Assembly (NCBI GenBank): GCA_973895155.1
Contig: OZ316897.1
Location: 23,225,455-23,289,454, forward strand
DNA from: Marsupella aquatica
Lineage: Eukaryota; Plantae; Marchantiophyta
Direction of reading: 5' to 3'
DNA length: 64,000 bases
A program made the position numbers and the translations under genes. Under the pieces are notes generated by a model. It was not told the origin of the DNA. It saw nothing but the letters and a program-made list of their open reading frames with translations, and searched no databases. This document shows positions 20,074 through 63,183 of this stretch, one piece after another (the first letter of the stretch is position 1; each line of letters opens with the position of its first letter).

Positions 20074-20528
20074 CTTCTGATTGAACTCAGGTGCTCTGGG
20101 CTTCCTCTGTCAGCACCACAACCCACGATCAGATCTGCTACCAGGATAATATCCAGGAGATTCCACGAGGTGCAATGAATTTGTGGTTATTTCTGACGAC
20201 TATGTTTCCGGTGATCTTTCTACAATGAGTGTTCAGAAATGGATAGCAGACCGGTAAGCCTCTCGAGTTCTAGGGTGCATTCCTACCTCCGTCCAAAGGT
20301 GTATTTTCTTGTCTCCCTTGCTCTGCTGTGATCTTTGGTACAGATAACTTGCAAAAGTTAAATGACTCCTTTGCAACTTAGAGTAACGGCTATCTGTCAA
20401 GAATGCAATGATCTTAGAATAGAATATTGAAATAATTGTGAAAGGCTTATCCAGGTATCAACAAGCTCGTTCCTTCTCCCGTATTTCACTGTACCCACAG
20501 AAAGGACAGAGTCAAGAGCCTATCGAAT

Positions 20529-40400: not shown

Positions 40401-41217
40401 CCACTGTTTGTTGAGGCACTGTGATAGTCCCTGTGGCAACCTTATTGGTTTGATCTGAACCAATGTATAGTTCGACCAACTCTGACATCCAATTTGACCG
40501 TTGGAAATAGTCACAATTAGTTTTAGAAATTTCAGCTGACGGAGACTCCACAACAAAACTCCGCTCTATGTCAATATTGTCACCCGCATCCGTCTTTGAG
40601 CAACTCTTTCTACTTTGGACATCCGCCACATCCCAGAGAACCCATGAGTCTTTTGCCTCGTCAATTGTTTCAGCCCCACTATGTTTGTAAGGTAAAACCC
40701 TTCTCCCATGAATGATATTAGTGACCCTCACACTGATCCGTGATTCACCAAGTAAAATGTTGTGACATCTGTCCATTGGATTTGTATTAAAAACAACTCC
40801 AAGGGCTACACAACACCCAAAGATGAACATTTCCACCTCGTCCCCTTGCCTCAGAGTAGTTGATGAGTCCTCCTCTACAATTGGGATTTTCTCCAAATTA
40901 CTCTCCAGTCAATTTGAACAACTACCTACACTGATGCGTTTTTGAGAATTTGTTGTTGTTGATAGATATGCGCATGACAAATCCCAAATAACGCAAGAAT
41001 CAATGGCATCAAAAAGGTTTTCTGCCCGAGGCATCGGAAATGGTAGTTTTGCGGTTCGGTCAAAAACTTTGTCAATGAGAACACCAATTTGATTCTCTCT
41101 CAACAATATATTTTGAACACTATCCTCCGGGTTGATTTTTTGAACTATCCCGCTTGCAACGTTGTAACCGTCAATAGTCAATATCACATTGTCGCCTCTC
41201 ACAAATATTCCCATCAT
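37464..41217 (-). pseudogene. Transposase of copy 2: ancestral ~1250-aa exon broken by TGA stops and frameshifts
   Basis: ORFs starting at 41217, 40896, 40248 and 39360 share one frame, separated by TGA codons (CGA or CGG in copy 1 where it can be compared). Same DDE motifs as copy 1. Splice acceptor tgcag near 41225. Confidence 0.85.
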
Positions 41218-41354
41218 TCTTTCACCTGCACAATTTGAAATGTAAATTATTAGTTAAAGATGATCCCAACTAGGAAGCGAAAAGTTGTCAATCCTATCCA
41301 AGGACAACGCATATGAAGCAAAAAAAAACCTGAACCTAATACTCACACTACGTC

Positions 41355-42815
41355 GATGATCCCTATCTAGCCCTAAAATCCCTTGTTACTAAATATCCAG
41401 ACATTGGACAGGGATGATCCCTGTCCAAACAACGGATAGGGATGATCCTTGTCCAAACAACGGATAAGAATGATCCCTGTCCAAATGGAGGATAGGGTGA
41501 TCCTTGTCCAAACACTGGATAGGGTGATCCTTGTCCTGAAAATGCATAGGGATGATCCCTGTCCAAAAGGCGGATACGGATGATCGTTGTCCAAAACGGT
41601 TAATAGGGATGATCCGTGAGTGTCTAAATATTAGATAGGGATGAACCCTATCCAAATGGCGGATGAAGATGATCCCTATCCAAAAGGCGGATAGAGATGA
41701 AAGAGTCCAAAAGATAGATAGGGTTGATCCTGTCCAAATTGCGGACAGGGTCAATCCCTGTCTACATGATGGATAGGGTTATATGATCCCTATCCAAAAA
41801 TATGGATAGAGATGATCCCTGTCCAAATGGCTAATAGAGATGATCCCAGTCCAAACGACAGATAGGGATGATCCCTGACCAAATGGCGGATAGAGATGAT
41901 CCTTGTCCAAATGGTTGATAGGGATGATCCCTGTCCAAATAGCTGATATGGATGATTGTTGCCCAAACGGTGGATAGGGATGATCCCTGTCCAAACAGCG
42001 GATGAAGATGATCCCTGTCCAAAAGGCGAATAGAGATGATAGAGTCCAAAAGACACATAGGGATGATCCTGTCCAAATTGCGGACAAGGATGATCCCTGT
42101 CTACATGATGGATAGGGTCATATGATCCCTGTCCAAAAAGGTGGATAGAGATGATCCCTGTCTAAATGGCTGAAAGAGATGATCCTTGTCCAAACGGCGG
42201 ATAGGGCTGATCCCTGCCCAAATGGCGGATAGAGATGATCCCTGTCCAAATGGTTGATAGGGATGATCCCTGTCCAAATGGTTGATATTGATGATCCATG
42301 TCCAAACGGCGGATAGGGCTGATCCTTGTCCAAATGGCGGATAGAGATGATCCCTGTCCAAATGGTTGATATGAATGATCCCTGTCCAAATGGTTGATAG
42401 GAATGATCCTTGTCCAAATAGCGGATATGGATGATCCCTGCCCAAATGGCGGATAGAGATGATCTTTGTCCAAATGGCGGATAGAGATGATCCCTGTCCA
42501 AACACTTGACATGGATAGGGATCATCTCTATCCAAATAGCAGACATGGACAATCCAAGTATGTGAACTTGATCTAAAGATAGTAAGATCCCTGTCCAAAT
42601 GGTGGATAGGGATGATCCCTATCCAAACACTTGACAAGGACAATCCAAGTATTTAAGTAGACTTGATCTCTAGACAATAAAATCCCTGTCCAAATGGTGG
42701 ATAGGGATGATCCCTATCCAAACAGCTGACAAGGACAATGCAAGTATTTAACACTAGAATTGATCTCTAGACAATAAAATCCCTATCCAAATGGTGGATA
42801 GGGATGATCCCTATC
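41355..42815. repeat. Tandem array of a ~28-bp unit built on the palindrome TGGATAGRGAT-G-ATCYCTRTCCA
   Basis: Dozens of units such as ggatagggatgatccctgtccaaatggc, with higher-order duplication (block near 41760-41830 repeats near 42100-42170). Confidence 0.95.
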
Positions 42816-43919
42816 GTGAGTTTCACTAGGATCTTCTCAATTCAATAAAATCAAACAACACTAGGTAACTTAGTTATATGATTTCAAAATTTGCAAATAT
42901 CAATGGAATATTTTTCAATGGAGCAATTAATTGAGAGTTACCTGTATTGGAAATGATTCTTGAACCCCAAACTCACTTGACTTTATGCTATCATTTTACT
43001 AGTCAACCAAATGACTAAAATATAGTGTTGAAGGGTAGCTATATGTAAGCTGGTTAACTAGATGCTTCAATAGTGTAGAAGGAACAAATTTTCTTGCATA
43101 TATCTAAAATAAAAGAGGAGAGGTTAAAACTGGATGTTTGGCGGTTCTTTTAAATTCCAAAGTTTCTCAATGGAGCTCCATAATAAACGGAGCTCGTTGA
43201 GAGACTGAATGAAAATCTAAGAAGGAAAATAACAATGAGGTCGCTCGCGGGGTTCTTATACCATTGTTCAAGAGGGATGGAGCGTAATTCTCGCTGTCAA
43301 AGATGAGGCAAAGCGATAAGGCGCAATCGACCTTCACCAGCGGCGGAGGGTTAGGGCTTGTTTGAGGGTTGCGCCTCACTAGTGGCCGTACTTTGCATTT
43401 GGTCTCACATAGTCGGTCGTACATCCTCGGCCTCACATCATTGGCCGTACATCATCGGCCTCCCCCCTGGGAGGGGGTAAAGGAGGCAAGAGGTCCTCTC
43501 TTGACCTCATTCTTCATTTCCTCCTCTTGTGATTCTCCTCCTTCTCCTCCGCTCCTCCTCCTCCTCTGCTCTTGCTCCTGTTGCGCTCCTCTTACTCTTG
43601 CTCCTCTTGTGCTCGATCCTCTCGCTCATCTTGATCCTCCTATGTGCTTCCGCTTCTCTTCTGCTTCCTCCTCCATTGCTACTCAGTCTCCACCGCCGCC
43701 ACATTAGTTGCCCTAGATCTAACGCCTCTTGATCCGCCATGTGTCCAGATTGCCACGTGTTCAAATATGGAGTCAAGTAGGCCTATTCAAGTGGACTTGA
43801 CTACAGAGCCAACAGAGGAGACGGATCTCTCCTCCATTGCGGACGTGGTAGACACGGCCTTGGAGGATTCTAGAGCCTTTCAGTTGCTCAACCCAAGTGA
43901 GTACCTCAAGTTTTAGGCA

Positions 43920-44420
43920 CCGGACAGAGATCATCCTTGTCCAGTTGGATAGAGATGATCTCCATCCAAGTAGACGATAGTGATGATTTCTATTAGTAAT
44001 TCGATACGGATCATTCCCATCCTGTCCAGTTGGATAGAGATGATCTTCATCCAAGTAGAGGATAGTGATGATTTCTATTAGTAATTCGATACGGATCATT
44101 CCCATCCTGTCTATGGATAGAGATCATCCCTGTCCAGTTGGATAGAGATGATCTCCATCCAAGTAGAGGATAGTGATGATTTCTATTAGTAATTCGATAC
44201 GGATCATTCCCATCCTGTCTATGGATAGAGATCATCCCTGTCCAATTGGATAGAGATGATCTCCATCCAGTGATGATTTCTATTAGTAATTCGATACGGA
44301 TCATTCCCATCTTGTCTATGGATAGAGATCATCCCTGTCCAGTTGGATAGAGATGATCTCTATCCAAGCATAGGATAGTAAAGTTGGATAGAGATGTTAG
44401 TAATTCAATACAAATCGTTA
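43920..44420. repeat. ~105-bp tandem repeats containing the same palindrome; the array resumes at 48421-48745 after the LTR-like insertion
   Basis: Units ggatagagatcatccctgtccagttggatagagatgatctccatcc...tagtaattcgatacggatcattccc. Perfect palindrome ttggatagagat-g-atctctatccaa at 44343-44367. Confidence 0.9.
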
Positions 44421-44886: not shown

Positions 44887-47388
44887 ATGTCGCACACGAT
44901 CCTCTCCAGCTCGGCCATTCGATTCTGGACGCAGTTCCTATCTACCGGAAGGCACTTGGCCGATTCATTGAAACACGCCAACCCGCGCCGATACGAGATC
45001 GAACGCGAATACGAGAGAGCCATCCGCCTAGCAGGACGACACCACTACGTCCTTAACTTTGACTACCCGTCTCAGAGCGAGCTTTACCGACCAGCTGAGG
45101 TATCTGGGTACTTCTTCAACGGAGACAAATATATCGGGTTCTGGGAAGCATTGCTTCGGCTTCCGGACGAGGTCTTCAATATCCCGGGTACAATCGACCT
45201 GCAGCGACATCACTTCGACCACATCCCTGCCCAGGTTCGGGCTGTCATTAACGGCGAGTCCAGTACCAACCGTTCGACAAGGGCATCCGCACTCGCTTCG
45301 GAGAACTTCTACCAGCACCTGCAGAGCTTCATGGGAACTCGGCCATCAACCAACATGACCAACTCAGCCGGGCCCGTACCCATACCCGTACCCGTGCCCA
45401 TGCAACCTCAGCTTCAGCTTCAGCCTCAGCCGCAGCCTAGCCAAACCCCACCACCTATCACCCAGCCAGCACAGGTACGCTCCATCATCAACGCTGTGGA
45501 TCTTAGCGATGACGACGAGGCTACCCCACCCTTGACCAGGCGGCCCAGAGGAACAAGCGCTCGGGGGGCCGACACTATATCGTCCCCACCCCCTGCTCTG
45601 ACCCCAGGAGCGGCCCCAGCAGACAACATAGTGACCGTGGCCGCCCCGGGCCCGTTACCAACCGCAGTGGCACTCCCCAGGCCCGATCGGGAGGATGGGG
45701 AAGTATCACCTTCCCCGAGTCAGTCACGGGGAAAGAAGAGGAAGGAATCCGCCACTGCATCCGGGTTACCGTTGGCCACGGTAGCCGTAGCCAAGGTGAC
45801 GATGCATCGCATGGGGGAAAACGTTCATAGCAACATCCTCCATCCCAAGCATGCGGTGTACCTGAAGACTCAGGGATTTGAGCACCTCGCCTCTCTCCCC
45901 TGGAACACTTGCAGGTACTACGGGGAGGACATGACGGAATTCGTCAAGAATTATGACGACGTACGTCAACAGACTCGGCTGCGGGGAAGGAATATGTCCC
46001 TCACAGAAGAACGGCTCAAGATGATCTTCGGGTTACCCGAAGGTGACCATCGAGTCGAATCACGGGCTCCCGGGGGCAAGGGGGCCAAGTACCAATCTTC
46101 AAGTTTTCCCTCAGAGGGATCAGTAGACAACGGGTTCGTGATGAGGACCTGCCTCATGCTCGAGATAGCTGAGCGGCTGGAGTTCCAGAGGTACGCTCTC
46201 CACATGATGGAACCCCAGGGGGAGATCTCCGCCGCCCAGGTTATCCAGGTCGAGAACTATCGACCTCGGAAATGGGCGTCGTACTTCGCTAAGAAATTCC
46301 ATGAAGAGATGGAGCGGCGAAGGAAGACGCTGTACATTGGCAGGAAGGCGTATTTTGCTAGCCACATCGAAATCATTCTTGAGTGGTACGCCCGGTTTGA
46401 TCGACGAACCCTTCCCCGCATCAACGTTACAAAGCTGGTCCCAGCTAGGTGGGTTTTTCCGGCATTGGAGAGACGGCCCCAACCCGAGGCCCGAAGTCCA
46501 GTGGACACGCCAGCTTCACCCACCCCACCTCCACAAATAGCTGTAATCGTAACCGAGGAGGCGCCGGAGGGGTCGGTCATCGCAACCGTTGATGCGACCC
46601 AACTAGCCGGGCTAAGTACAGAAGTTGGTACGACATAGGTCTTACCCGAACTCGGGTCTCCCAAGGACCCGCCGGTGGCAATTCCGGAGAACCGGACATC
46701 GCTGCAGGAGGACACTCCAGCCCCTTCCAACGTTATGTCCCCAGGGCTGGACGTCACTGCCCCGGCCCCTGCGCGTGTTGATGTCTGCCCGTGCCCAAAT
46801 CCGGACAGGCACAACTTGGACCACCCGGAACTCTTCGTACAGGGTACGTTTCTGAACGGGCTTCTGGGAGATTTCTCTCATCAAATTGCCCGGGATACCG
46901 GGGAGTTCATGGCCCGGAAGGTAGCCTGTTTCTTCAATCAGGAGTTGGTTGCCGCCGTAAAGGCAGGTCGGGCCCAGTCGGAGGCCCTTCAGAGGATAGA
47001 GCGGTACCGGGTGGAGTCCGTGTACCTAAAGAACGAAGTGGCGGCTCAAGAGGCTGAGCTTCTGCAACTACGACCCAAGGTTGCAGCCGCCGATGAGTTG
47101 TTAGCAAAGGCGTACGCTCTTACCGCCCTAGCCGAACAGGCCAAAGCTGGGAACGAGGCCGAGATTACACGACTCCGGAACCAGATTGACAGTTTGAAGA
47201 AACAAGCTGTCACCTGGCAAAAAGACCTGGAGGAGGCCGAGGAGCGAGCCCAGCGGGACGCGACGGAGATAGCCACACTGCAGGCCGAGATGGCGCGGCT
47301 CCAAACCGAGGCCGAGAAGCAGGACCAGCTGGCGAGTAAACTGACGAGCGACGCCCAGCAGCTGGAGGAGGCATGTCAGGAGGCATGA
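44887..47388 (+). pseudogene. LTR-borne ORF: N-terminal domain, Pro/Gln linker, NLS, plant-transposon-protein (Transposase_32-like) region and coiled coil; one in-frame TAG at 46636-46638
   Basis: The 583-aa and 237-aa ORFs are in the same frame. GFEHLASLPW...EFVKNY...RLRGRNMSLTEERLKMIFGLP resembles extra-ORF domains of plant LTR elements. Confidence 0.6.
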
Positions 47389-48799
47389 CGCGGCGAGGCA
47401 AGAGAACGAATCTCTGCTGGACCAGGTCCAGCTCCTCAAAGCGGACAATGACAGGCTTCGAAGGCAGCGGGATGGCCGTTCCCATTCGGGCGGCTTTGGC
47501 AAGCGTGCCAGGCATTAGCGGCAAAGTAGGAATAGATTAGGATTAGGATTGGCTTAGTCAGGCTCTTGGGACAGGCACCTGCCTTAGGTACAGCAGCGCT
47601 GCCCTGCTGTCCAGCCTGCGTAAATTAGGATCTTCTAATAAGACATAGCCGTTTTCCGGCCTGACTGTCAGCTTAGTTAGGACCTTAGTCAGCGAATCTT
47701 CAGCGTGAGGACACCCCGTTCCTCGGCTCTTAGTATTTAGTGCACCCCTCTGTAGAGGCAGGGGGGTTTTTAGTTTCAGAGTCGGACATCCGCGGGACAT
47801 GCGGGGAGTCTCGACCTCTGGGAATGACAGAGTACCAAGGGGAGGGGGTAGGACTAAGCTCGCCGGGTGAGTGCGGAGCCGGGCTCCGTTGTAGTGTGCA
47901 CCCTCGGCCTTGAACCTGTGCATTCCAGGGCTGTCGTGTCAACTAAGTGTACGCATATGTTCCCTTTGTAGTAAAATCCTTTCCCATCATTTTTCCTTCG
48001 TGTAAATCGAGATTGTATACATGTGTGCGCATATGTGTGTGGGTTTCTCGTATACGGGTGGCAGCGCCGGGCCGAACGCACTACCCGAGATGTGCACAGG
48101 GTGCAGCCTGCGGGTAAGTGGTTGCGAGCACGGGTTGAGGACCTGTATCATCGAATCCGGATCGAAGGCGGACAGCACGAAGGCTTAGAAGCCCTTAAGC
48201 CGGGGTTGATCCTGCTATCGACTAAGGTACGTTCTGGCGGTGGAACACAAACCATACCTAGGAGGTGTCCGTATGTAGCAGTATGCGCACTTAGCGCTAG
48301 TTTACGAGAATAAGGTGCATTACGTGCTTCCCTTCCTGCCCGAACCCTCAGATTTACGAGGGATGTGCCCGTCTAAGCTGAAGTCTGAGTTAAGGCCGAA
48401 GCCTACGACGTGACACGTTAACATTCTCTACTTGGATAGAGATCATCCCTGTCCAGTTGGATAGAGATGATCTCTATCCACATAGTGGGTAGAGATGATT
48501 TAAAGTTTTTAAAAGGTTTTGGATCTTTCTCGTCCTTTGCCCCATCATCCGCCTAGATAGAGATCATCCCTTTGTAGTTCTCTATCCAAGCAAAGGGTAG
48601 TGATGATTTGAATTAGTAATTGCATATAGATCATTCCTATCCTATGACTGAAATCATCTCTGTCCAGTTGGACAGGGATGATCTCTATCCAAGGAAGGGA
48701 GAGTGACCTCTAGTTGGAATCGGATAGAGATCATCTCTGTCCAAACTTATAGAGAACCCCAAATTTCCAGTGACAAAACTAATAACCAGGTCAGAGGTG

Positions 48800-51700
48800 G
48801 CTCTTCCAATAATGGAGGTGAATGACACTTGGATGGAGGATGCGACGGGGGACACACCCCGGCGTAGGAAGGGCGAACAGGCTTTTCGGGAGGGACACAA
48901 TTTCTCTCCGGGTGGACGGGCACGTATCTAGGAAAATAGGATCATTGGCTCCTTGGTTGCGGTTCACACAACATGATGAGAACTGTACGCATTGTAACAT
49001 GGAATGTTTGTGGCTTATGCAAGCCAAACCGAAAAAACATCGTTAAAAATTGGATTGAAGGCCGCAGAGAGAAGATTGATATCATGGCGCTACAAGAAAT
49101 CAAGGCCGACCAATTCCGGCTTGATATCGCTCTAAGAGCAATACTACCACTATACCAGCACTTAACATCTGCCCCGGATGAGGGCAGAGGAGGCTCTGCC
49201 CTGCAACTGCATCCGGACCTTAAGATTGTAGCACGGGGAGTTGTTGATTTGGGTAGAGTTGTGTGGGCACGGATTGAGGTTGACGACATCACTTTTGGCA
49301 TTGTAAGCATTTACACACCTAATTCCCCTTGCCAGAGGGCGGGCCTATGGCATGAGCTGAAGCAACTCCTCCCCTAGGGAGACTGGATTCTAGGGGGTGA
49401 TTTCAACATGACGGAACTTCGAGAAGATTCTACGGGAATTTCTCCTCTGATTAAGGGACGAGAAGCAGAGTTCTGGCGCTTCTTGAGAGTCAGATTGGAC
49501 TTGGTCGATGCTATAAGGATTAAAGGAGAAGCCATGGGCGCACATTTCACCGCAGGTTCAGGAATACGGGAACAGTGCAGTCAAGACTGGATAGATTTTA
49601 TTTCAGCGGAAAAGGAGAATGGATAGAAGAACTCACGGAATTGATTCATGATGGGGGATCTACGCTTTCGGATCACGACCCAGTGGTGATAATAATTGGA
49701 CTGGGAGAGCGGACGAACAACACTCCCCTCCTTAGGGGGGCAGTTTTGTTCAAGGCCGATCCTACAGTGGTCAGATACCAGGAAAATTTGATTGCTCTAG
49801 AGGGCGCATGGAACGCTGGAAAGGGAGGATGCATGGAGCCGTTGCTGGCGTTCGATCGAGCTAGTAGTAGGATGCGCCAGATGTATAGGATGAAACAGAG
49901 CTCCCCAAAAGAACGGGCGGAAGAGATGAGGGTGCTGCAAAATAAGCTACGGGAATGCAAGGAGGCTTTACTGGATGCCCATTCGGAGGATGATCTGAGA
50001 ACGTATGTCGAAGCAGAAGATCTTTTGCATGTTGCTGAATTAGAAGAAGCACATATAAGTAGACATCATGCCAGGATCAAATGGCTGGGTGAAGGGGATG
50101 AGCCCACCCGTTTTTATTTTGCTATAGTGAAAGCTAAGAGAAGCAGGGAGGCCATGAGGACTCTGTCAACGGAGGGAGGAGGTACTATTAATGAGCCGAT
50201 GGCTATTCTTCAGGAAGTGATATGACACTGTAAAGAACTATATGCCCCCCCTCCTCTTACAACCGGGGAGCACCGAGAGCGGCTGAGAGCAAGGAGCACC
50301 CTCCTAGCTCACACTAGACATACAGTAACCATATCAGATTTGAATAGGATGGAAGCATTGCCCACTAGCGAGGAAATCAAGCAAACTCTCTGGCTACTGC
50401 CGTCGGATAAAGCCCCAGGCCCGGATGGTATGACTGCTGAGGTTTATCGGGCCTATTGGGAGTTTATGGGAGTGGACATAGTGGCAATGATACATGTTTT
50501 CTGGCTGACAGGTAAACTGGCTGCAGGAGTGAAAGATGGGATTATTAAATTTATTCCGAAGAAGCCGGATAAACGTTTCTTGAAGGACTGGAGACCCCTG
50601 ACTATGTTGAACACGATTTACAAGCTTATTGCTAAGATCTTGGCCAATAGATTGAAGCTGGTTCTAGTTAAGCTCATCAACGTACAGCAGACAGGGTTCA
50701 TCCCGGGCAGGAATATTTTGGAGAACATTTCGCTTGCCTGGCTAACATGTGATTGGGTTAAGAACAGGAAAGTGGAATCCCTGTTTCTTAAGTTGGACTT
50801 TGAGAAGGCCTTTGATAGAGTAGATCATGAGTACATTTGGGAATCAATGCATCTGCTAGGGATTGGCAGCAACTTTATCAGGTTGGTACAGGAATTACTA
50901 AGGGACTCATCTTCGCGAATACAGGTTAACGGTTTGCTGTCAGAACCGATGGGCGTGGAGCGGGGCGTTAGACAGGGCTGCCCGCTTTCACCCTTACTGT
51001 TCGTTATCTCCACTCAACCACTCATGGATCTCATGGATGCTGAGCTTGAGGCGGGAAGATTACTGGGGATCAAAATCACGGATGAGCTAACAATATGCTA
51101 TAGGTTATTTGCGGATGACATGGGGATGTTTATCCCTGCCACTTTGAGGAGCTTTACAATGGCCACAACTGTTTTGCATTGCTATGAAACAGCAACTGGT
51201 GCAAAACTCAACCTGCGGAAATCCATTGTCATCCCACTATCACTGGATACTATACCAAGGTGGCTGTCAAATACAGGTTGCGTGATTAGTCACAAAGGAG
51301 AGCTACAGAAGTACCTGGGTGCTCCCCTGGGGGTAGACTTGAAGACGGAGCAACTGCATAGATTTGTTCTAGATAAAATCGGCATGCGCTTATCCTCCTG
51401 GGCAAATAAACTTTTGTCCTTTTCAGGGCGGGCACTTCTGGTGAGACATTTTACAGGCTATTCCTATTTACCACTCCATGTTCCTAAGAGCGTCTGAGGG
51501 ACTTGCGAAGAAAATGATTGCGCTGTGCCGGGACTTTTTATGGGGATACAACTCGGAGGGGGGCAAGAGGATCCCTCTTGTTTCTTGGGCCAGAATGGCC
51601 AGACCTAGGATGGAGGGGGGACTCGGGCTGAAAGACTTCCGCAGCCACTCTGACGCTCTGTTAGCCAAATGGTTCACTGGAGCTCTAGATTGCCCGGAGA

Positions 51701-53100
51701 CGGAATGGGCCTCTCTCTTTGCAGAAAATCTCAAAATAGTGCGCTGGATGAATTATAAGTGGATACGCTGGAACAAGTACTCCTTTCAGGATAAGATGTT
51801 GTTATGCAGCCCTCGGTCCTTCAATGGACTGGCATATACTGGAGGACTGTGGAAGGCGTGGGTACAACTTTGTTCCCACCTGATATTTGCACCCACTGTT
51901 ATGATACCTGGTAGGTGGAATATCATGGACACTATACGCTGTCTCATTGGTTTCCAATCCTGGCCCAACACAAATTTTGCTGTGGTCACTGTGCTGTGTG
52001 GCCGAATGGGCATCAGAGGCATTCAGGATTTATGGTCTGCTGAACAGAATGAGTGGCGTAATCTGAATGAGCAACTAGAACACCTTCAAGGCTTTACTCC
52101 GCTTGAGAAAACTTGCTGCAGGGAGTTCTTACAGAAGGTCAGTGCTATAGATGGTTGCAGGATGAACTATGTTACTGGTTCCCGATGCTGGAGATGGGCT
52201 GACAGACCTGATACTATCAATACTTTTAGGATATCCAATCTAAGGGCATACATGTTGATTCGCCCCCCCCATCAGAGACTACGACAGCCTGAATCACACT
52301 TGGGGTAGCTTGAAAACGGAAGGTGAATGGAATGCTGGGTGGAGTGGACTGTGGCGCTCTGACCTTTCCTCCCGTGCTAAGACTTTTCTTTGGAGAATAT
52401 TGGCTTCAGGTCTCTTTACCGGTGTTCGAGCAAGACGCATTGATAAAGGAGAAGGGCACTGTAAACTGTGTAGTGGAGAAATAGAAACTATCCCCCATCT
52501 TTTTGCACAGTGCGTTCATGCCAAGAGATGTTGGTCACTTGCTGCCACTTGTTTTTCAGGAACCTTTACAGATTACTCGGGTAGACTACTAGATCTACTG
52601 ATTCTCACAACATCGAAGGACCCTAACACAGTAGCCAAACTATTTATTCTCTATCAGATCCTTTGGTCTTTATGGCAGAGCAGGAATGTACACATGTTTC
52701 AGGCCAATGGCTTTAGGACATTTGATCTTTGCTTTACCCTCTCAGAGGCTGTTGACCATGCATCGGCGGTGGGCCTGTGTTTACCCCCGAGCAGATGACA
52801 CACACGATTGTTACGAGTGAAGGAGATCCTTATTCAGGAAAGATTAGTGTGGCTTAACAGCCGGCAGACTTGGATCACATCTAGATAGGAACTATGCTGG
52901 CCAATGGGGAATGCAGTACTTGAGCTCTACTTTCACCTGGTGTGGATCACTGTTTTCGTGGTGGACAGCCTAGTCTCTAGGCTTTCATCACATGTTGTTG
53001 TTTCCGCTCTTCAGGCGGGGTGGTTGATTGTGTGTTGCGGGTCACTTTCCTGTTTTCCTTGCCACGGGGTTTTCGTGGTCACTAATAAATTAAGAAAAAA
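48800..53100 (+). mobile_element. Degenerate L1-type LINE (ORF2: AP endonuclease, reverse transcriptase, zf-RVT); 5' boundary approximate
   Basis: IVTWNVCGL, LQEIK, GGDFNM, SRLDRFY, SDHDP, KAPGPDG, WRPLTMLN, KLDFEKAFDRV, GVRQGCPLSP, LFADD, KYLG, CKLC...ETIPHLFAQC. Stops and frameshifts throughout. Ends aataaattaagaaaaaa at ~53084-53100. Confidence 0.93.
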
Positions 53101-54769
53101 CATTTCCAAGGAATAATTATGCATGGTTGTGGCAATTCAGGGAGTACTCTCAATGCATTGAAACCACCAATTTCAGAGGCAGATTGTTCTGAGGGAGTCT
53201 TGCTTGAGCAGAGCAACCCAGACTTCCATTGGGGCCTTGAGTTCTCCAGAGTTGATTTTGATTATCTTAGCACAACAAAGAGACGGGAACCCGTGTTGTG
53301 CATAAAGGTCAGAACGTCAGAAGGGGAGACTCTTGTAATTGGACCTGTAGTCTTCGTTGGAATTGAAGGAAGGGGATTTGTTTCCGTCATTCTTGAGCTC
53401 CATGAAAGAATAAGGTGGGTTAAACTTCATCTTCCGTCAAAGGCATATTCCTCCGAGTTCAATATTGAGTGGTCTGCTGTTGGAGAACTTGGCGTGTTGT
53501 CAATGGGATTTTTCCCAAAATCATATTCAGCTCAGAAAGTTATTGCAGGGGTGAAGGGGATTCTTCCACTCGACATCATGTATGGCTTCCAATATGTGAA
53601 GCTAAATATCCATAAAAACCAAGGGAATTACACAATCCCGGTTACATGGGTTTTAAATAATCTGCTTGACAAGGCAGGTTTACTATCTTCAGAGTTAAGT
53701 GTTTGGCTTGACAGGAACATTGCATTTGATGAGGAGTTTGTGATGGATAATGCAAAAAAGTGGATAAATTCATTACCCAAGCCGACAAATGTTCCACCAG
53801 TAGCGGTGAAAGAGCTTCCACTAGTAGTTGTGAACACGGAAGTTCCCAAGCCACCAAAGTATCCCAGGAGACAACAGGGACTGCAAGAACAACAGCTGGG
53901 ACCGCAGGAACAACAACTGGAACAAGCACCAAAAGAGTGGTAGGGAAGCGGAGAAAAAGAGAGAGCAAGGAGCACGAGAAAATTGAGACACTGCCAAAGG
54001 AACCCGAGAAGAAGCCAGTAGGGAAGAAGAAACAGAAGACTGACAAGTCTATCATGCAGTCAACCCCTGCAGAAGTACAGATGCTCCCAGAAGATGAGGG
54101 AGACAAACTTGATGCCCCTGAGGAGAAGAAGGTCTTAGAAGGAAATGATGTTCTCCAAAGAATAGAGCAGTACTATACTTTTGGGATAAATGAACTGTTT
54201 TCTATTCCAGTGGAGAAAATTATGCCTGCACCAGCAAGATTATGTTACAGAATGCTCAATAGTACCCATGTGAAGCACATAGCCGAATCCATGGTCAAAA
54301 ACCCTGGACATGAACCTCATGTTGCAGACCTGCTTCCTTACAATCCAAAGCTTAGAAAGTTGCTCCATTTTGATAGCACGGAGAACGACCGCAAAGACTT
54401 TCTTGCAGGTGTGAAGAAAGGCGAGATTGGTTTCTTTGCCATCAGCGGGCAACATTCGGCTAGGGCGGCCAAGTGGGTTATCGAATGGGCCAAAACTGAT
54501 GCCAAGCTCACAGTGTTGGCAAAAAAGTTAAAATACAAGAAGTCTAGATTATTGTCAGACCTTACACCATCGGCTATATTAGTTGAGCACTCAATGAGAT
54601 CAAATGCCATCAATTCGACGATGGTGTTTCAATCGTGCTTCAAAGATACAATTGTTCATGCAAGGAAACAATTCATTGAATGCAGAGCACCAAGAAAGCC
54701 AAAGCACGGGGACAACAAGTCAAACGCCCAAGACAATCAGAAATTTCAGGTGAGAAACGTATTTTCTTG

Positions 54770-55120
54770 TTTGGATAGAGATGGTCTCTGTCCAAGAGTG
54801 TGACCGCCCGTTACACTGATTTTAGTTCAATATATTTTTTGGTTATGACTTGGATGGAGATGATCTTTGTCCAAGAGAGAGACCGTCCGTTACATTGATT
54901 TTAGTTCAACACATGTTTTGGTTATGACTTGGATGGAGATGGTCTCTGTCCAAGAGTGAGACCGTCCGTTTCAAAGATTTTACTTCATTCTACTTTTGGT
55001 TTTGACTTGGATGGAGATGGTCTCTGTCCAAGAGTGTGACCGTCCGTTCTAGAGATTTTACTTCATTCTACTTTTGGTTTTGACTTGGATGGAGATGGTC
55101 TCTGTCCAAGAGTGTGACTT
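54770..55120. repeat. ~63-80-bp tandem repeats inside the predicted intron, each with a palindrome variant TTGGATGGAGATGGTCTCTGTCCAA
   Basis: Five units visible between donor 54750 and acceptor 55169. Confidence 0.9.
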
Positions 55121-57818
55121 TTGGTTTATTTAGATAACTCATAACATTCCCCCCAATTTTTGATTGCAGGATTATTTAGCACTGGCAAGGATGACCATGG
55201 GGAGAAAAGCCTTGAAAAATGTATACTGGTTGCTTTTTGCCCAGAATGATCTTTTTGAGTTATGGCAGTTAGTGTGCCAGATGTGGATTGATGGAAATCT
55301 TCCTGATGGAGCTGGTACACAAGGAAACAAAAGGTCTGAAAAGGCAATAACAGTCGCAATGTTTCATTGTTTTGATGGTAAAATCTCAAATAGAGATTTG
55401 ACCAAAATTTTGAGCAAGGTGAAGTCAGGTCAGGTTTTATTGAAGAAGGATCCGACAAATAAGTCAGATGTTCCAACGATGGAGGAGTTTGCAAAGGAGG
55501 TGAAGATATTGATCAAATTGAAGTCTCTTATTGGAGATTACTACTTCAAGAAGGATCCAAAAAACTTCCCAGCAGATACTCAATGGGTTAAAGTAATTGA
55601 GGTCCTCCCATTGTTAAGTGCCGAGTCAGAGTTGAACAGGTGCCGAAGAGCGGCTGGTGAAGTATGGTTGACAAATTTATTGAAGTCTAATCATACAAAG
55701 GAGAGTGAGATATTGCCAATGACATTGGTGATGCGTCTAGATGATATTTACTGTCAGAAGTTTGGCGGTGGGACAAGTTCTCGGACCCAACCGTGGGTCA
55801 CATTTTTTAGTAACAACCTAATGAAGACAGTGGATCTGGAGTCGTTGGAAGAACAATCTCCAACATGCCCTCTTGCGATTGTTGATTTCAGCCAACTTCA
55901 ACAGAAGGAGTGGACTGAAGCAGAGATTTTGGTCCTCTTCCAATATATAGTAGAGCTACCACGGAATCCCACCATTGTTGTGATGATAACTGTCCATCCG
56001 GGTTATCTTGTACTGAATGTCCTAAGCGCTCTTCGTAAATTAGGACATTCAAAAACTTTAAGCATTCACATTGAGTATGGGAGTTATTCTCGAGATGATC
56101 AACCTCACCCTCATGACTCATGTTGGAAGGGAGGAATAGAAGAAGTTATCTTTGCCAGAATTTCTCGCAAAGAAAATGTCAGCTGGGATGAAGTGTTCAA
56201 GCCCAACCAAATGAAGCCAAAATGGGTGTATGGTGAAAAGGATACTGATTTTGTCGTTGAGAAGATCAAAGGGAATGGAACGGCGAAGGGAAAGAACACG
56301 GACGAGGAGTCAATGGATGAAGATCTACGAATTGTGATGACCCTAGAAGAGGCGACAATACTTCTGCACATGGCACCTCGATTTGAGACTGTTGGGGCTC
56401 GCGGTGGATGGGTGAATCCTCATGCCAAACCCACCCGGATGATCCAAAAGATCATCCAAACATTATCCGAACCAGGGGATTTGATTCTTGACTTTTTCTC
56501 TGGCGGTCAAGTGATAAAGACATCCCTTTTTTCTCAACGTGAATGTTTTGTTTATTGTGACTCTCAACATGAGAGACATTTTTTGGAAGCATACGCTTCG
56601 TTCCTTTGCGAGAGGGTTCCCACCATCAAAGATCGTTATGATTGCTATGTTGGTGGATGTTCTAGACATTGGGAACCCTCTTCTGCCGCTGTTGCTATTC
56701 ATGATGAATCAGATGGTGATCAAGAAGATGGAGCTGACCAATCAGTCAAAGGTGATGGGCCATCGGAGGGTGCATATGTGAAGAATTTGGATGACCGAGT
56801 TGGCGAGGGTGAAGATATTGACCTTGTGGAAGACGACATGATTGTTGGATCTGCACCTTGTAGTTCACCAATTACAGATGTTGCCCCCATGGGCCCCAAC
56901 GAGGGCCAGTTTGATGATAACTTGGATAGAGATGGTCTCCATCCACAAGTGCCTGGACAAGAGATGGAGAAAATGAGAGAATCAGAAGTTGATACATTTG
57001 AGAAACTTTCTTCAAACAACCTTCTCAATCAAGGTGCGGAGAGGCATGGTGAGTCCAATGAACTTGACACATTGGGATTGAGAGCAGAGACCATCCAAGT
57101 ACCTGACATTCCCGTCAATGAAGCAAGTGCATCCACGACTGCTGACAACCAGGCAGGTGCTTCAATTTGTCCCAATACACTCTTTTCCGCTTCTGATGAC
57201 AAATTAGTGTTTGTTCGGTCACAATCAAGAAGTCCTGTTATCCTTCCGATCTCAAAAAAGAAAGGAAAGAGAGTAGCATCAATGGGATATAAGTCACTTG
57301 AATATGATTGCCGATGTTACGTGTGGAAAAGTGGACCAGATGTAGGAACCGAAGTACCGTTGGATGCTGCTCAATCAATTTTGAACAATGACTTACAAAA
57401 AGCATAAGAAAGATCCAGCTTATAGAAGCGGAGAATTGGGATTGATGACTCCAGTTTGGTCTGCACCTTATTGGGTAGAGGAGAGTACCTCCGATGTCAA
57501 TTATGAGATCCAACAGGAGCTCGATGATGATATCTTGATTGATGAATATGGATCTCATTGTTAGCCAAGGGCTAAGATTTAGCCATGTGACCTTATCAAT
57601 TTGATATAATATAGTCTGTATAATTATACTTCAAGCGCGCCTAACAATTAGAGCATAAGTATCAATATCCATTTCCTTGTTACGGTTGCTCAATGAATAC
57701 GGTCAGTATGCAGATTTTCTTTGTGGTTGGCCACTTGTGTTTTTTGGATGGAGACAATCTCTATCCAAACTTCAAATGTGGTTTTCTCTCTAAGATTGGT
57801 ATTTGTTGCACTTGCAGA

Positions 57819-58850
57819 ACCAAGACCTTCCATCAAGCGCAAATTGCTGATTTTGGATCTTAACAAAATACTTTGGGATTCGGTTGAATTCCAAAGCAAG
57901 GGCAAATCCAGAAATGTTGTGACCCCAAGTGGAGTGCATTGGGATAGAAAAAATGGAATTAGTCGCATGTATACAGAAAGGCCAGGGCTCCATGAGTTTC
58001 TAAAGTTGGTTTTTGACCAATTTGATGTTGCGATTTGGACATGTGCTGGGGTACAGCGAACAGTGAAAATGTTGAACATGATGTTCATCGTTGAAGAGCG
58101 GTTGAAACTTAAGTTTGTATTCACACACGTGGAAGCCTTTGACACAGGCATTCAAAGGCGTGACATTACAAACGGAAAGGCAAATGTGCTACTGAAGGAT
58201 TTTCGGGTGGTATGGAGTGGATTTGGAAATCTATATGATGAAACCAACACCCTCCTTGTGGATGACTCCCCCCTTAAGGCATTTGCCAACCCAAGATTCA
58301 CCGGACTATTTCCAGTGCCCTACACGCATGCCAATCGTGGAGATAATTTTCTTCTAAAAATTCTTTGGCCTTGTCTTGAGAAACTATCACATGCAAGTGA
58401 CATTAGATGTTATCTTCTTCTGAACTCTCCACTGTGGTCTCTATTGAACATAAAGAGAGACAAGGTAAAAAATGAAATTACTTATGATCAACTTAGTAAG
58501 AGATGTGCAACAAAAATTTGGAAGTCACAGTTTACGCATAGTGTGTTGGACCTCAATAGCAATGAGATTCCTTGGAATGTGAAGCATCGTATATGTAGTT
58601 TACGTACTGAGGCAGAACTTGACGATGCACTTGTCACCTCACTTGCTAAAGCATTTGTAGGATGAGACTATTCAGGTCCGTATAGAGAAAATCCCAGACA
58701 CTTTTTGCGGGAGATTATAGCCATTAGGAACAACACCACCAAGTTTCAGCTCCCTGAAGATAAAGGGACTTGCAACTGTGACAATAGGGTAGATAGTAAA
58801 GGAGACAGGGGCACGTGCTCAAATACACATTGTAAGGAGCACTTTGTTTA
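57819..58850 (+). pseudogene. FCP1/SCP-like (NIF, HAD-superfamily) phosphatase-domain cargo ORF
   Basis: KRKLLILDLNKIL; ERPGLHEFL...FDVAIWT; KDF; NTLLVDDSPLKAFANP. Acceptor ttgcag at ~57813-57818. TGA at 58663-58665 is followed by an open Cys-rich frame to 58850, so it is probably a premature stop. Confidence 0.75.
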
Positions 58851-61045
58851 GAGATCTGACTCATGTTAAGCCCCTTAGATAGAAGAAATACATTGTAAAT
58901 TTGGAGATAATTGTATATTATTTTATAATCTATTTGGAGTTATGTCATGATTTTGTTCACACATATTAAAGGGCTTCTTTGTGCTGAAATGTTTTCATAA
59001 GTATGATCTCTATCCTACTATTCTTTGTGAATTAATAACTAATGATCTCTATCCTATTATTCTTTGTGAATTAATAAATAATATAATATATATTATTTAT
59101 TAATATAATACTAATATGATTTGGCCTATAAAGTGTACATTTAGGGATCAAAAAGTGTACATTTGGGTTTCTTAAAGTGTACATTTGGGGACATGAAAGT
59201 GTACATTTCAAGACTGATTTGTGAACAAAAGAAAATACACTTTTAATGAATAGACTGAACTCTGTATTGTACCCTAACCCTAAATTGTATCTCACTAATT
59301 TGGAGAGTTTCTCAGACTAGCGAGATCACTAGCATAATACTGACATCATTTTGATCATTACAACTTCAACCACACAAAAACTAGTCTCCAAGTTTAATTT
59401 GTTACGGGTTAAGTCTAGAACATGTAGTCAACAGAGGAGGATTGTAACCCCTCTACTAAACCCATTTACCATCCTAGATCTTGAAGGTCTTGTGTCAAGT
59501 TTGAAAATTGAATCCCGTTTGGAGAATTCCGAAGACTAGCGAGATATTAGGGAGAATCACCTCGCTAACATTAGGGAGATTCACTCAGGTTCTTAAAGAT
59601 TACAGAAGAAGGAACCAGTTGAACTAGAACTAGTCCTATAAGGTATGGTCTAAATTGCCCCGGCTAGATCCCCTCCTGGCGCATAGAGATGAGAACACCA
59701 GCTCGATTGAAGTTACTCTATGAGGAGAAGACAATTGCAAAAGACTCCTGCTCTGAGGAGACGATGAGTGTGAAAGAACGATCAAACTGTTAGGAATGGA
59801 GATGAGCCCAAAGGTCCAAATGAGATATAGTGGATTTTGGGAGCCTCAGATCCTACAAAACGGTTTTGGGTTCCAATCCTTTCACGCTTGAATGATGCAG
59901 AAGGGTGCATTGGATTCTATCGTGACATGAGCTCTCATATTGCTGGCGCTGAAACCATTTGTTTTTGTGCTTTCTCATGAGTGCATTTTCATGTGGGTCA
60001 AGTCCGCACAAAGTATTTTGTGCAAGAATCACATATACAATTATGGCTAGCAATTTTGCTAGCCTGATGTATGTTGGAATTCTATAATGTTCAATTATGA
60101 GGCCGTGCACTCACCTTCATGATTGGGGAATACGTATTATGTACCAATAGCCCCATGCCCGTGTGTTGCACAAAAGATGTTGAGTGAGGTCAAGATGTTG
60201 AGGTGAGGGCAAGATTTTGAGTGTCTGAGGGCAAGATGTCAAGGTGAGGGCAAGATTCCGAGTGAGGACTTAATGTCGAGGTGAATTGTGGTGGGTACCC
60301 CGTCACGGGAAGTCACACATAACTGGTCACGGAGGCCTATGCATTGTTAATAACCATTGTAAATAAGCTGTTTTTTTAATTTTCGAGTTAATTCCATCCT
60401 TTCAAGTTGGTGCTGCCGGGAGGACTTTACTTTATTTTGTTTTCTTCTCAGAATTGTTCTAAACGGTCACGGCAACCTAGGGAGGGAACTCAGTCTAGTG
60501 TTTGCTTAGGGAAGTTAGCTCATAGCCAGAAGAGGGAATCAAGCCAGAGTAGTGAGGTAGAGGTGTAACACTTGCCCCAGTGAGGCAGTAGTTGGGCAGA
60601 CGGCAAGAGGCTGGGTTGTCCTTGTTACGACGTTTTGCCAAAAGATATGGATTTGGTTTGATTCCTCAAGTTTTGGTGTGGCGTTATTTTTTCGAGTTCA
60701 CGATTGTGTTCTTTCCCCAAGAAGTGTCTAAAGAATACTTGCACGGATTGGTCGACCATGTGAGTAGGGGGGGTGGTGACAGCACTCCACCAGCGACCAG
60801 TAGGAGTGTGTGTGTGGCATAGTCCATGGGACTTGATCAAAAGCAGCGGGACTAGTCGGTAGACTTGATCAAAAACTACATTTTTGGGAGCGAAAATAAA
60901 CATACTCATCCTACATGCAATAGAATCCTAATAACGTCCCTCCAAGTTCTCGTCATACGATAACAAATGATTTTAGTAGGAGTAAATACATATTTGTTGT
61001 GTAAATCGTTTGATAAGCAGGTGACATAAGTATGATCCTTGTTTT

Positions 61046-61063: not shown

Positions 61064-61263
61064 ACCTTCTCCTTGTTTGGTTGCAGGAGGAGGGGAGCTA
61101 CGTCTATTTGGAGCTCAAGCGTGTCAACTTGCAACGGTTGATACGTGAGAAAAAGTTACTCTGTTATTTTACGTCAACCACAACGCAACTTGCGACGGTT
61201 GATGTTTGAGGAAGATTTTTTGGTGATTTTTTTTCGTGAGCTTGGCATGCAGGTCTCAATGGG

Positions 61264-63183
61264 ATGCCGAGAGGAAGAAGGGGAGGGAGAGCAAGCCCCC
61301 AACACTCACGTACGCCTGAGCTAGACCGAGTGCCCTCTTGGGTTGCTGCCGAAGAACAATTACGGCTTGCAGAAGAGAGGAGGTTGCCACGGGAGCTAGA
61401 AGAACAAGTTGGTGTGCCGCAAGAAGGGTTTCAACACAACGAGGCCATACGTCCAGACGAAGAGCCAGACGTAGATCACGTGCTAGAAGAAGGGGAGCCC
61501 TTTGTATTGGTGCAGTCTGAGTTACGGCCAAATCTGATCCCAGAGCTCACTGCATTGCCACAAATCATCTCACACCTATCAGCATTGCCGTTACCGGTGG
61601 CCCAACGTATGCCATTACCGCTTGTGTTGATACGGGGACCAGTTGCACCAATGGCAGTTGCTCAACGTACCCGTGTTCAGTACGTACCCTTCAAGGGAAG
61701 ACCAAAAGATGATCCAGACGAATGGATTGAAGAGTTCAAAGGGATCACAGAAGCCAATGGAGAATCTGCCCACAAGCTCACTATCATTCCCGGAATGATG
61801 AGGGGGGAGGCAGGCCCATGGTTCATCTCGTTGCTACCCAACGTGAAAGCTGATTGGGCCTTGTTCAAGCAAGCATTCTTGAAGGAGTTCCGATCTATTG
61901 GAGTGGAAGCCACATCCCTGTTGAAGGTGGGTCAACTTAGGATGAAGAAGAAAGAGTCGCTACGGAGGTTCTTGCAAAGATTCTAGAAGTTGGTACGGCG
62001 GATACAAGCCCGTACCGATGATGCTATGCGACAAGCGTGGTTTGTAGCTGCCCTACCAAGCAAGATGGGGTTCTTTGTACGACAGGCCAAGCCAACCACA
62101 TTGGCTGAGGCTATTGCAGCAGCGGAGTCATACACTGCCGCCGATGCCACGAGCAAGCGCTGCCGAAGAAAGAAGTTGAAACCTGTTGACAGTTCCTCTA
62201 GTGAGGAATCAAGTGAATCTGAGTCGGATGGTAGTGATGAATCTGAGGACTCTGAGAGCACTACAGAGTCAGACACTATGGAGTCAAAAGCTGAGAAGCA
62301 AAAGAAGAGGAAGAAGTTGTCCAAGAAGGCCAAGAAGTCGTCTCATCGAGAAGTGGTGCTACCCACGGTGGCAGTAACACCATTGTCTATGGCAAGACGA
62401 CTCAAGGAGCAAGAGGCCAGGTACAATGAGTTGACAGAGCAAATAAAAGCATTGAAGGTGCACTTTGCAGGTCTCAAGCCAGAGAGGAGAAAGGTTCCAG
62501 TGGAGAGAGCCAACGTGTGGTGCACCAAGTGCATGAAGTTTGGTCATGCCCCGAAGGAGTGTCCAACGGGAGAACCAACCAAGGTTTTTCAAGTACGGGA
62601 GGATGACGTTGAGGGAGCAAGCTACTCAAACCCTTCTTATGCAGCGGAAGGACCAGTAGAGTACTTCATGGAGGAGCCACCAGAGGCCAACGTATATAGT
62701 GTACAACCTCTCAACCCGGGACCAAGGAGCATTCATGGGATCTCAACTAACGCTGGAGCACCCCCATATGCTAACTATTCCAACGCTACTCCCGGGAATA
62801 AGCCATCATATCCGGGGGTAAGAAAGATCCCTATTTGTTACAATTGTAGAGTGGCTGGCCACTACGCTAACGTGTGCCCGGAGCCCACACGTCAAGGGAA
62901 CGGAGATTTTTCCCGGTTGTGTCAATTGTGCAAGGGGGAGGGACATCTTGCACCACACTGTCCAACCTTGGGATTCATTTGGTTGCCGTGGAGGTTAGTT
63001 GATATACCAGATAAAGATCTGTTAGACTTTGTCGGATGCTGGGAGGCTTCTTCCAACACGACGCTGATGTATGGGAGGGTTGTAGAGCTAACACCAGCGC
63101 TAATCAAAGCTTTCTTTGCTTTACCACAAAGAAACAAGACCAAGGTGGAGCAGAGGAAGACGTTACCGGATAATCAGTTTTGA
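61264..63183 (+). pseudogene. gag: Ty3/Gypsy (Athila-like) gag with three CCHC zinc knuckles; in-frame TAG at 61984-61986
   Basis: PFKGRPKDDPDEWIEEF...MRGEAGPWF...WALFKQAFLKEF; CTKCMKFGHAPKEC, CYNCRVAGHYANVC, CQLCKGEGHLAPHC. Lies downstream of the PBS. Confidence 0.85.

Follow-up and report, generated by a model that had tools for sequence, protein, structure and literature searches.

A 64,000-nucleotide stretch of the liverwort Marsupella aquatica genome (assembly GCA_973895155.1, contig OZ316897.1, positions 23,225,455 to 23,289,454 of the forward strand; hereafter the window, numbered from its first letter) contains a DNA transposon of 22.4 kb. One gene of this element encodes a protein that joins a ParB/Srx-like domain to a domain resembling the beta-class amino-methyltransferases of DNA, and a 23-bp near-palindrome recurs across the element, including the intron of the same gene.

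The transposon

The element occupies 36851-59258 and is bounded by 25-bp terminal inverted repeats (TIRs), the left one (36851-36875, plus strand) being the reverse complement of the right one (59234-59258, minus strand) at 24 of 25 positions. Self-comparison of the window revealed a second, partial copy, with positions 1-1284 and 1284-4807 matching 45685-44420 and 40346-36850 in reverse orientation at 97% and 94% identity, respectively. Homology between the copies stops exactly at 36851 and 4807, and copy 2 has a different flank. The target-site flanks of the one complete copy read ..ACTA and ACTC.., alike at three of four positions. The family is present in high copy number: four public runs (X1-X4), made up of DNA-like contigs and possibly including the window's own sample, hold 324-3248 contig pieces per run with at least 90% identity to the element. 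The gene lies inside a transposon, as an earlier note on this DNA had proposed, since it is placed between the two repeats of an element that has a second copy within the window.

The sole candidate transposase is specified by open reading frames (ORFs) with a DUF7869 domain (PF25273, Pfam E 1.2e-37) at 37464-40908 on the minus strand, that is, the strand opposite to the ParB-methylase-like gene; these frames are interrupted by stop codons. The DUF7869 ORF of copy 2 is intact and encodes 652 residues (2197-4155, Pfam E 1.2e-42). Look-alike clusters in the Atlas come from plants, molluscs and cnidarians, and there is a eukaryote-wide DUF7869 cluster; no match was found among PDB sequences and no mention of DUF7869 in the literature searched. 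As a separate observation, the DUF7869 gene region of copy 2 (1262-4155, plus strand) includes a 347-residue ORF that overlaps upstream in another frame, and this copy would be the better one for classifying the transposase.

A long interspersed nuclear element (LINE) is nested at 48781-53111 (plus strand), 7 bp upstream of the start codon of the ParB-methylase-like gene, and has endonuclease and reverse transcriptase ORFs (RVT_1, E 1.5e-29) and an A-rich 3' end. In run X3, a contig was found in which 48780 is directly followed by 53112; the 4331 nt it skips correspond to the LINE, so that the contig represents the empty site. The possibility that the gene is part of the LINE was therefore ruled out, the LINE being a nested insertion.

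Structure of the gene

Two ORFs of the plus strand, 53751-54803 (350 residues) and 55164-57407 (747 residues), share one frame and are separated by an intron of 420 nt (54750-55169) with GT at 54750 and AG at 55168-55169, seven in-frame stops and a 79-bp tandem repeat of 4.4 copies. The earlier note had predicted this phase-0 GT-AG intron, and comparison with homologs supports a junction of 54749 with 55170; among the DNA-like contigs of the four public runs, none spans this junction in spliced form. Gene model P0001 of Calypogeia fissa runs gap-free across the junction (..ENSRFQ|DWQVLAK.. against ..DNQKFQ|DYLALAR.. in the window), its first 49 residues corresponding to the end of exon 1. Two relatives that are ORFs of unspliced contigs end just past the junction, P0007 with ..YQVC and P0009 with ..FEVREW.., which is compatible with an intron that starts with GTG at the identical codon boundary. 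The peptides that the note had quoted were all recovered, FSIPVEKI...FFAISGQHSARAA in exon 1 and NPHAKPTRMIQKIIQTLSEPGDLILDFFSGG at exon-2 residues 416-446 (56415-56507). After splicing, exon 2 has 745 codons and carries NPHAKP...DFFSGG.

The gene is longer than the interval 53141..57407 first assigned to it. Its coding region extends from 53119 to 57564 and gives a product of about 1342 residues, read with an X at each of two frame breaks. On the 5' side, an ATG at 53119 opens a frame other than that of the ParB-like part, and the ORF 53119-53943 aligns with the N-terminal domains of P0007 and P0009. This N-terminal domain (exon 1, 53119-53855, frame 1) belongs to no recognizable family, as searches of Pfam and the Atlas with 53119-53940 gave no match. 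An extra A after 53855, found in all four public runs in 26-48% of the contig depth, links the N-terminal frame to the ParB-like part. On the 3' side, the window copy has a 2-nt deletion near 57393, because of which the coding end is placed at 57564 rather than at 57407: two extra bases (CA or CG) follow 57393 throughout the contig depth of X3 and X4 but nowhere in that of X1 and X2, and the tail (57394-57564) is then read in the +1 frame. The ..IDEYGSF terminus of the homologs is matched in this frame at 57412-57561, where the window reads ..IDEYGSHC before a stop at 57562-57564. Other genomic copies lack both frameshifts and, as read from these contigs, the window copy is damaged, whereas the family has other copies that stay open at both breaks.

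Between these ends, exon 1 continues with a Lys-rich linker and the ParB/Srx-like domain (53856-54749, the domain itself at about 54180-54620, with GQHS at 54447-54458). Exon 2 begins with a region that is helical in the predicted model (55170-55781), placed between the two folds, and proceeds through the methyltransferase-like domain (55782-56636) to an acidic, poorly conserved region and a C-terminal block conserved among homologs (56637-57393). The NIF/FCP1-like ORF that follows downstream was rejected as a further exon, as the homolog ends ..EYGSF.. are matched at 57547-57561, ahead of the stop. The earlier reading had passed over the N-terminal domain and both frameshifts of the window copy, as well as the arrays of palindromes described below.

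The ParB/Srx-like domain

The exon-1 domain was modeled by AlphaFold from a 44-sequence alignment with a mean predicted local distance difference test (pLDDT) of 92.1 and a predicted template modeling score (pTM) of 0.85. The 12 best listed rows of a Foldseek search of the PDB with this model are Noc, ParB, sulfiredoxin and pNOB8 ParB, with probabilities of 0.99-1.00 and a best E of 2.9e-3; no match was obtained at E ≤ 1e-3. A VIA search of 48,161 chains, which is independent of Foldseek, placed eight ParB/Srx-type chains in the lead with Z scores from 8.5 to 5.2, and the next chain scored 3.4. The eight are PadC (Z 8.5, root-mean-square deviation (rmsd) 3.2, 98 aligned residues), KorB (8.4), a free serine kinase (7.6), pNOB8 ParB (7.4), SbnI (6.4), Arabidopsis Srx (6.4), Atu1540 (6.0) and human Srx (5.2), of which the serine kinase, SbnI and Atu1540 are presumably members of the ParB/Srx fold.

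Proteins of this fold have a conserved Gly-x-His/Arg where the central strand turns into the next helix. In the family, ISGQHS is found at such a turn, between model strand 111-116 and helix 118-130; H119 is invariant in the 44 sequences, and G117, Q118, S120 and A123 are conserved in at least 90% of them. Taken together, the uniform top rows, the drop in score beneath them and the invariant residues at the canonical turn show, at the level of the predicted model, that the exon-1 domain has a ParB/Srx fold, in agreement with the domain assignment made earlier from the letters.

The methyltransferase-like domain

The Pfam family N6_N4_Mtase (PF01555) matches exon 2 with an E of 1.8e-5 and 25.3 bits, below the gathering cutoff of 26.7 and over profile positions 163-192 of 221 only; four of five homologs fall under the cutoff too, with 23.4-24.7 bits. 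Exon-2 residues 1-500 were modeled, and pLDDT values of 70-88 were reached in the strands and helices within 205-335 and 420-490. Foldseek found 40 matches to this model in the PDB at E ≤ 1e-3, the top rows being CcrM, M.MboIIA, TTHA0409, M1.HpyAVI, M.RsrI, M.PvuII, M.BceJIV and the rotifer enzyme N4CMT. With VIA, CcrM reached a Z of 15.5 (215 aligned residues, rmsd 4.3, model residues 205-489 on chain residues 3-258), the remaining beta-class enzymes 12.2-15.1, including rotifer N4CMT with 13.6, and the MT-A70 enzymes at most 9.8.

Sequence profiles led to the same class of enzymes. A six-sequence family profile matches M.RsrI with an E of 9.1e-6 over motifs X, I and II, aligning VNPHAKP...LDFFSGG with HPTQKP...LDFFAGSG of the bacterial enzyme, so that the SAM (S-adenosylmethionine) loop of the family is one residue shorter. 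By hhalign, the family matches 34 prokaryotic methylase ORFs from metagenome loci (probability 96.4%, E 1.2e-9), and viral models also match the exon-2 domain, including a phage protein named ParB/Sulfiredoxin, over 461 columns. These comparisons show that the core of exon 2, as modeled, has the fold of beta-class N6-adenine/N4-cytosine (N6A/N4C) methyltransferases, the fold that the earlier note had recognized from the motifs.

The features of the SAM loop are kept in the domain, namely DFFSGG and VNPxAKP together with an acidic residue that follows strand 2, and D441 to G446 (DFFSGG), N416 and K420 are invariant in the six-sequence alignment. The note had listed FFSGG as a caveat; this reading of the letters was accurate, but its weight is minor, as M.RsrI itself has DFFAGSG. 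The other caveat, that no (D/S/N)PPY motif is visible and that the candidate site reads LAIVDFSQ, now extends to the family, for none of the 10 members examined has the catalytic motif IV, (D/N/S)PP(Y/F/W/H). LAIVDFSQ (exon-2 residues 235-242, 55872-55895) includes model strand 235-239 (LAIVD), which the aligned VIA ranges place where CcrM has the strand preceding DPPY. At this strand 4 the window reads DFSQ and the relatives DFSR, DFTR, DFGR (twice), EFSA, DFAR, DVTH, DLTA and DLI, giving the consensus D-F/V/L-S/T/G/A-x. Because this sequence replaces DPPY, and judging from what is understood of the motif, the domain can probably still bind SAM but is likely unable to methylate an exocyclic amino group.

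The palindrome arrays

The intron repeat drew attention to a 23-bp near-palindrome, TGGATAGAGAT(G/C)ATC(C/T)CT(G/A)TCCA. A scan of the 64-kb window with an idealised version, allowing up to five mismatches, gave 38 hits, as opposed to 0 in each of five shuffled controls. Twenty-five of these lie at 40.2-44.4 kb (40183-44366), in arrays that include a 28-bp unit repeated 39 times at 41406-42502; five form a second cluster at 48.4-48.7 kb (48433-48743), close to a region of very high contig depth, and five are in the intron of the gene, within the 79-bp tandem repeat. The remaining three are single palindromes, one in exon 2 (56923), one overlapping the start of the NIF/FCP1-like ORF (57745) and one in copy 2, at the site that matches 40183. 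The main element thus accounts for 37 palindromes and copy 2 for one, and none occurs in the other ~37 kb of the window. GATC is present in every unit, and 7-11 of the 11 arm pairs are complementary.

Relatives of the protein

A word-indexed search with exon 2 returned five proteins, the best being P0001, an unnamed product of Calypogeia fissa with 37% identity, and a profile search with exon 2 found no relatives beyond these five. With the exon-1 domain (P0006) as query, an exhaustive search by phmmer gave 85 cluster representatives (clustered at 50% identity) at E ≤ 1e-3, of which 18 were at E ≤ 1e-30. Twenty of these relatives were looked up; nine have an organism name and all nine are from Riccia sorocarpa. 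A further search yielded Calypogeia and Riccia again, and thus every named relative is a liverwort. Long open frames and shared invariant residues are kept in relatives at 23-41% identity, which we take to come from two liverwort classes. That the two domains belong to one protein, as the earlier note had deduced from the frame across the splice junction, is borne out by Riccia sorocarpa models P0063, P0102 and P0103, each of which has both (GQHS/RQHS together with D(F/L)FSGG).

Beyond the liverworts, 67 metagenome loci were matched over the motif X-I block only (residues ~316-527). The 37 ORFs examined from these loci look prokaryotic, do not belong to the liverwort family, and have DPPY or DPPF in 35 cases, compared with none of the members of that family.

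Proposed function and alternative explanations

With moderate confidence, the gene is best regarded as an accessory gene of the 22.4-kb TIR transposon, in which the ParB-like domain is predicted to bind the palindromes of the element and the methyltransferase fold is likely inactive on N6A and N4C. From its N terminus, the protein consists of the N-terminal domain of no known family, a basic linker, the ParB/Srx fold with GQHS, a helical region, the beta-class methyltransferase fold, an acidic stretch and the conserved tail. Bacterial ParB and KorB proteins bind palindromic parS or operator sites; by analogy, the ParB-like domain would recognise the 23-bp palindromes, 37 in the element and five of them in the gene's own intron, and such recognition would gather the protein at the transposon that encodes it. 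The methyltransferase-like domain would likely bind SAM, DNA or both but leave adenine N6 and cytosine N4 unmethylated, and the complex would affect the chromatin state or the maintenance of the element instead of writing a base mark. The copy in the window is itself defective: the gene is frameshifted at two places and has a LINE inserted 7 bp upstream of its ATG, and the candidate transposase is broken.

Several observations weigh against this interpretation, some of them given below with the alternatives that they favor. For the exon-1 domain, the VIA tool rates Z scores of 7-8 as common, and the best Foldseek E reaches only 2.9e-3. No Pfam family, ParBc included, matches P0006 at E ≤ 10, none of 31 relatives matches ParBc in Pfam at E ≤ 0.01, and the 44-sequence profile returned from PDB sequences no ParB but low-complexity matches only. 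ParB proteins that bind cytidine triphosphate carry an Arg-rich GERRxR box; these arginines are not present in the family, in which the position reads GQHSARA. By these sequence characters the domain is not a canonical ParBc. For exon 2, the model as a whole is mediocre (pLDDT 66.3, pTM 0.46, nine sequences). The splice junction is drawn from homologous gene models and the logic of the frames, not from RNA.

The alternative that survives best, though we consider it rather unlikely, is that the protein is an active methyltransferase for N6A or N4C whose strand-4 motif (D-F-S/T/G-R) is non-canonical and which, guided by its ParB-like domain, marks the DNA of the element, as proposed for the Sola1 protein of Ectocarpus discussed below. 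The invariance of the SAM loop could mean that the enzyme is still active, since D441 to G446, N416 and K420 are the most conserved part of the family and align with M.RsrI, and 6 of 10 members keep the Asp of motif IV and the aromatic residue that follows it. The presence of GATC in every palindrome unit also fits this alternative. As a further point against the preferred interpretation, hhalign puts DPPY not at LAIVDFSQ but at TVDLES, ~18 residues upstream, with low confidence, which leaves the exact position of strand 4 unsettled; at this spot P0005 reads DPPI, whereas the other members have not kept the motif. Active beta-class writers of N4-methylcytosine (4mC) exist in rotifers, whose N4CMT is the fold match with Z 13.6, and in Marchantia, with TSPPY, according to the available part of 10.1101/2021.02.12.428880. 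On the other hand, neither the Pro-Pro pair nor an aromatic fourth residue is found in any of the 10 members, and the SAM loop is one residue shorter than that of M.RsrI. We know of no active amino-methyltransferase that lacks the Pro-Pro pair, and this counts against an active enzyme as well.

A bolder form of the preferred interpretation, in which the protein has no methylating activity, seems unlikely to us: a phage-derived ParB and pseudo-methyltransferase carried by liverwort giant transposons would load on parS-like palindrome arrays of the element, one of them in its own intron, as a self-recognition module that shields or reprograms the chromatin of the element, and, bolder still, an ancestral active version of this cargo might have been the source of the 4mC writers of Marchantia sperm.

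The palindromes may instead be unrelated to the protein, being a satellite that invaded the element, a foldback repeat or binding sites of the transposase, while the ParB/Srx-like domain would work as an NTPase or nuclease or mediate protein interactions; ParB/Srx folds do include kinases, nucleases and sulfiredoxin. The 4-kb array stretch (40346-44420) is missing from copy 2, and contig depth in the 48300-48490 bin is 9,000-45,000 in the four runs compared with hundreds in the neighboring bins, indicating that the palindrome unit is much commoner than the rest of the element. However, all 38 hits fall within the two copies of the element, the remaining ~37 kb of the window being free of them, and they occupy at least four separate places, including the intron of the gene, exon 2 and the corresponding site in copy 2. 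The arrays of inverted repeats that adjoin a ParB-domain gene in a red alga, as described in the available part of 10.1101/2025.02.11.637652, also point the opposite way, and a palindrome without relation to the protein appears quite improbable. Finally, the two frameshifts of the window copy would suit a decaying captured gene without function for the element, or a host gene caught between repeats, but we give this explanation very little credence, as the gene sits between TIRs, other genomic copies are free of both frameshifts, open frames and invariant residues are kept at 23-41% identity and the relatives number 85 cluster representatives at 50% identity.

The accessory-gene interpretation, with palindrome binding and a methyltransferase fold that no longer methylates, can be tested on two concrete partners, the defined 23-bp palindrome and the small ParB-like domain, which is modeled at high confidence. 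Because the family keeps the SAM loop without DPPY, one may also ask what role a protein that binds SAM but does not methylate would have on a transposon.

Other features of the element and the window

Within the element, 22-bp repeats with a GTGTACATTTGG core are tandemly arranged in the left subterminal region (36889-37189), and the core occurs again at 59130-59208, in the tandem repeats of the right subterminal region (59003-59208). Two ORFs of 583 and 249 residues (44887-47388, plus strand), Pro-rich at first and then with a coiled-coil tail, are head-to-head with the DUF7869 gene, occur in both copies and match no family; they may form a further accessory gene. The NIF/FCP1-like phosphatase ORF (57697-58665, plus strand; PF03031, E 6.1e-16) starts 130 bp past the stop of the ParB-methylase-like gene. 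Phosphatases of the NIF/FCP1 family carry a DxDx motif, and LDLNK is found at the expected position. Outside the TIRs, the stretches of 176 bp at 36663-36838 and 59314-59488 are 81% alike in direct orientation, perhaps because the element inserted into a repeat.

The window as a whole is rich in transposons. On its minus strand, a SET-domain ORF (29401-30075; PF00856, E 4.5e-6) adjoins CACTA-type transposase ORFs (26163-29250; Transposase_21, E 3.9e-40, and DUF4218), and the two may represent a second transposon with a chromatin modifier as cargo. An ORF of the PIF/Harbinger type (Plant_tran, E 2.4e-49) is at 22951-24048 and a retrotransposon gag with a zinc knuckle at 61240-63183, both on the plus strand. 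The minus-strand ORF at 16603-20109 encodes an intronless 1168-residue pentatricopeptide repeat (PPR) protein with E, E+ and DYW deaminase domains, an ordinary plant factor for organelle RNA editing, by which the window is recognizable as land-plant DNA.

Comparison with known systems

Few transposons encode proteins that can recognise and modify the DNA of the element itself; according to the available text of 10.1101/2025.02.11.637652, the sole shown case is that of the VANDAL elements in eudicots. The literature searched gave no account of a transposon gene of the ParB-methyltransferase type from bryophytes. The comparisons below draw on the parts of the cited sources that were available.

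The closest counterpart is the brown-algal element Sola1-1_Ec32 of Ectocarpus, 21.5 kb long, which encodes on the strand opposite to its transposase a 1104-residue protein with a ParB-like domain and an N4C/N6A methyltransferase (PMC12477816). Proteins of this kind were described there as a possible new accessory class that binds and modifies its own transposon. Both elements, of about 21-22 kb, have a single protein of about 1100-1340 residues in which a ParB-like domain precedes the methyltransferase domain. They differ in that the liverwort element has DUF7869 as its candidate transposase, and the likeness is to the published description of the Ectocarpus protein. Fusions of this type had been called typical of phages and prokaryotic mobile elements in the earlier note; their occurrence in algal giant transposons (PMC12477816) was not mentioned at the time.

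In the red alga Bostrychia, Plavaka elements encode PAG3, with a ParB domain and a 2-oxoglutarate oxygenase, beside tandem inverted-repeat arrays, and PAG2, with an N6A methylase and a SET domain (10.1101/2025.02.11.637652). The liverwort element resembles this system in having a ParB-domain accessory protein on a giant DNA transposon with inverted-repeat arrays near its gene, and in the idea that the protein binds or modifies its own element. However, the effector of PAG3 is an oxygenase and the methylase is part of a separate protein, whereas in the liverwort a ParB fold is fused to a methyltransferase fold without DPPY and one of the arrays is intronic.

The phage and plasmid ParB-methyltransferase fusions, and CcrM, M.RsrI, M.MboIIA and M.PvuII, share with the liverwort protein the fold and the order of motifs, as well as the motif X-I block at the level of sequence. 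Unlike the prokaryotic ORFs, with DPPY or DPPF in 35 of 37, the liverwort family has no DPPY, and the gene described here is interrupted by a spliceosomal intron and encodes an additional N-terminal domain as well as long stretches of low complexity.

Among eukaryotic enzymes, MpDN4MT1a/b of Marchantia and N4CMT of bdelloid rotifers likewise represent a beta-class fold of bacterial origin, and Marchantia belongs to the same lineage as the named relatives. MpDN4MT1a/b keep TSPPY and are host genes with demonstrated activity (10.1101/2021.02.12.428880). Both they and N4CMT differ from the transposon protein in retaining (T)SPPY as host genes, and the word ParB occurs 0 times in the available text on the Marchantia enzymes (10.1101/2021.02.12.428880). 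A different arrangement is that of the chlorophyte-type Dam methylases of chlorophytes and chytrids, which carry a fused helix-turn-helix of the ParB type and stem from phage ParB-terminase loci (Iyer, Zhang, Aravind 2016, PMC4738411). These also have a ParB-related module N-terminal to a DNA adenine methylase in eukaryotes, but they belong to the M.EcoKI/TaqI/Dam group, while the liverwort protein matches the beta class. A 2026 preprint on Dam-type methylases in retrotransposons concerns other elements, with no ParB in its available part (10.64898/2026.05.21.726589).

To our knowledge, liverworts possess the only 4mC system known in plants, and whether transposon cargo and host methyltransferases are linked can be tested in this group. 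The ParB-domain accessory genes described until now are from giant transposons of brown and red algae, and this locus extends the class to a land-plant lineage. Compared with the systems above, the new features are the land-plant lineage, the loss of the DPPY loop throughout the family, and a defined palindrome that is distributed across the element and in the intron of the gene.

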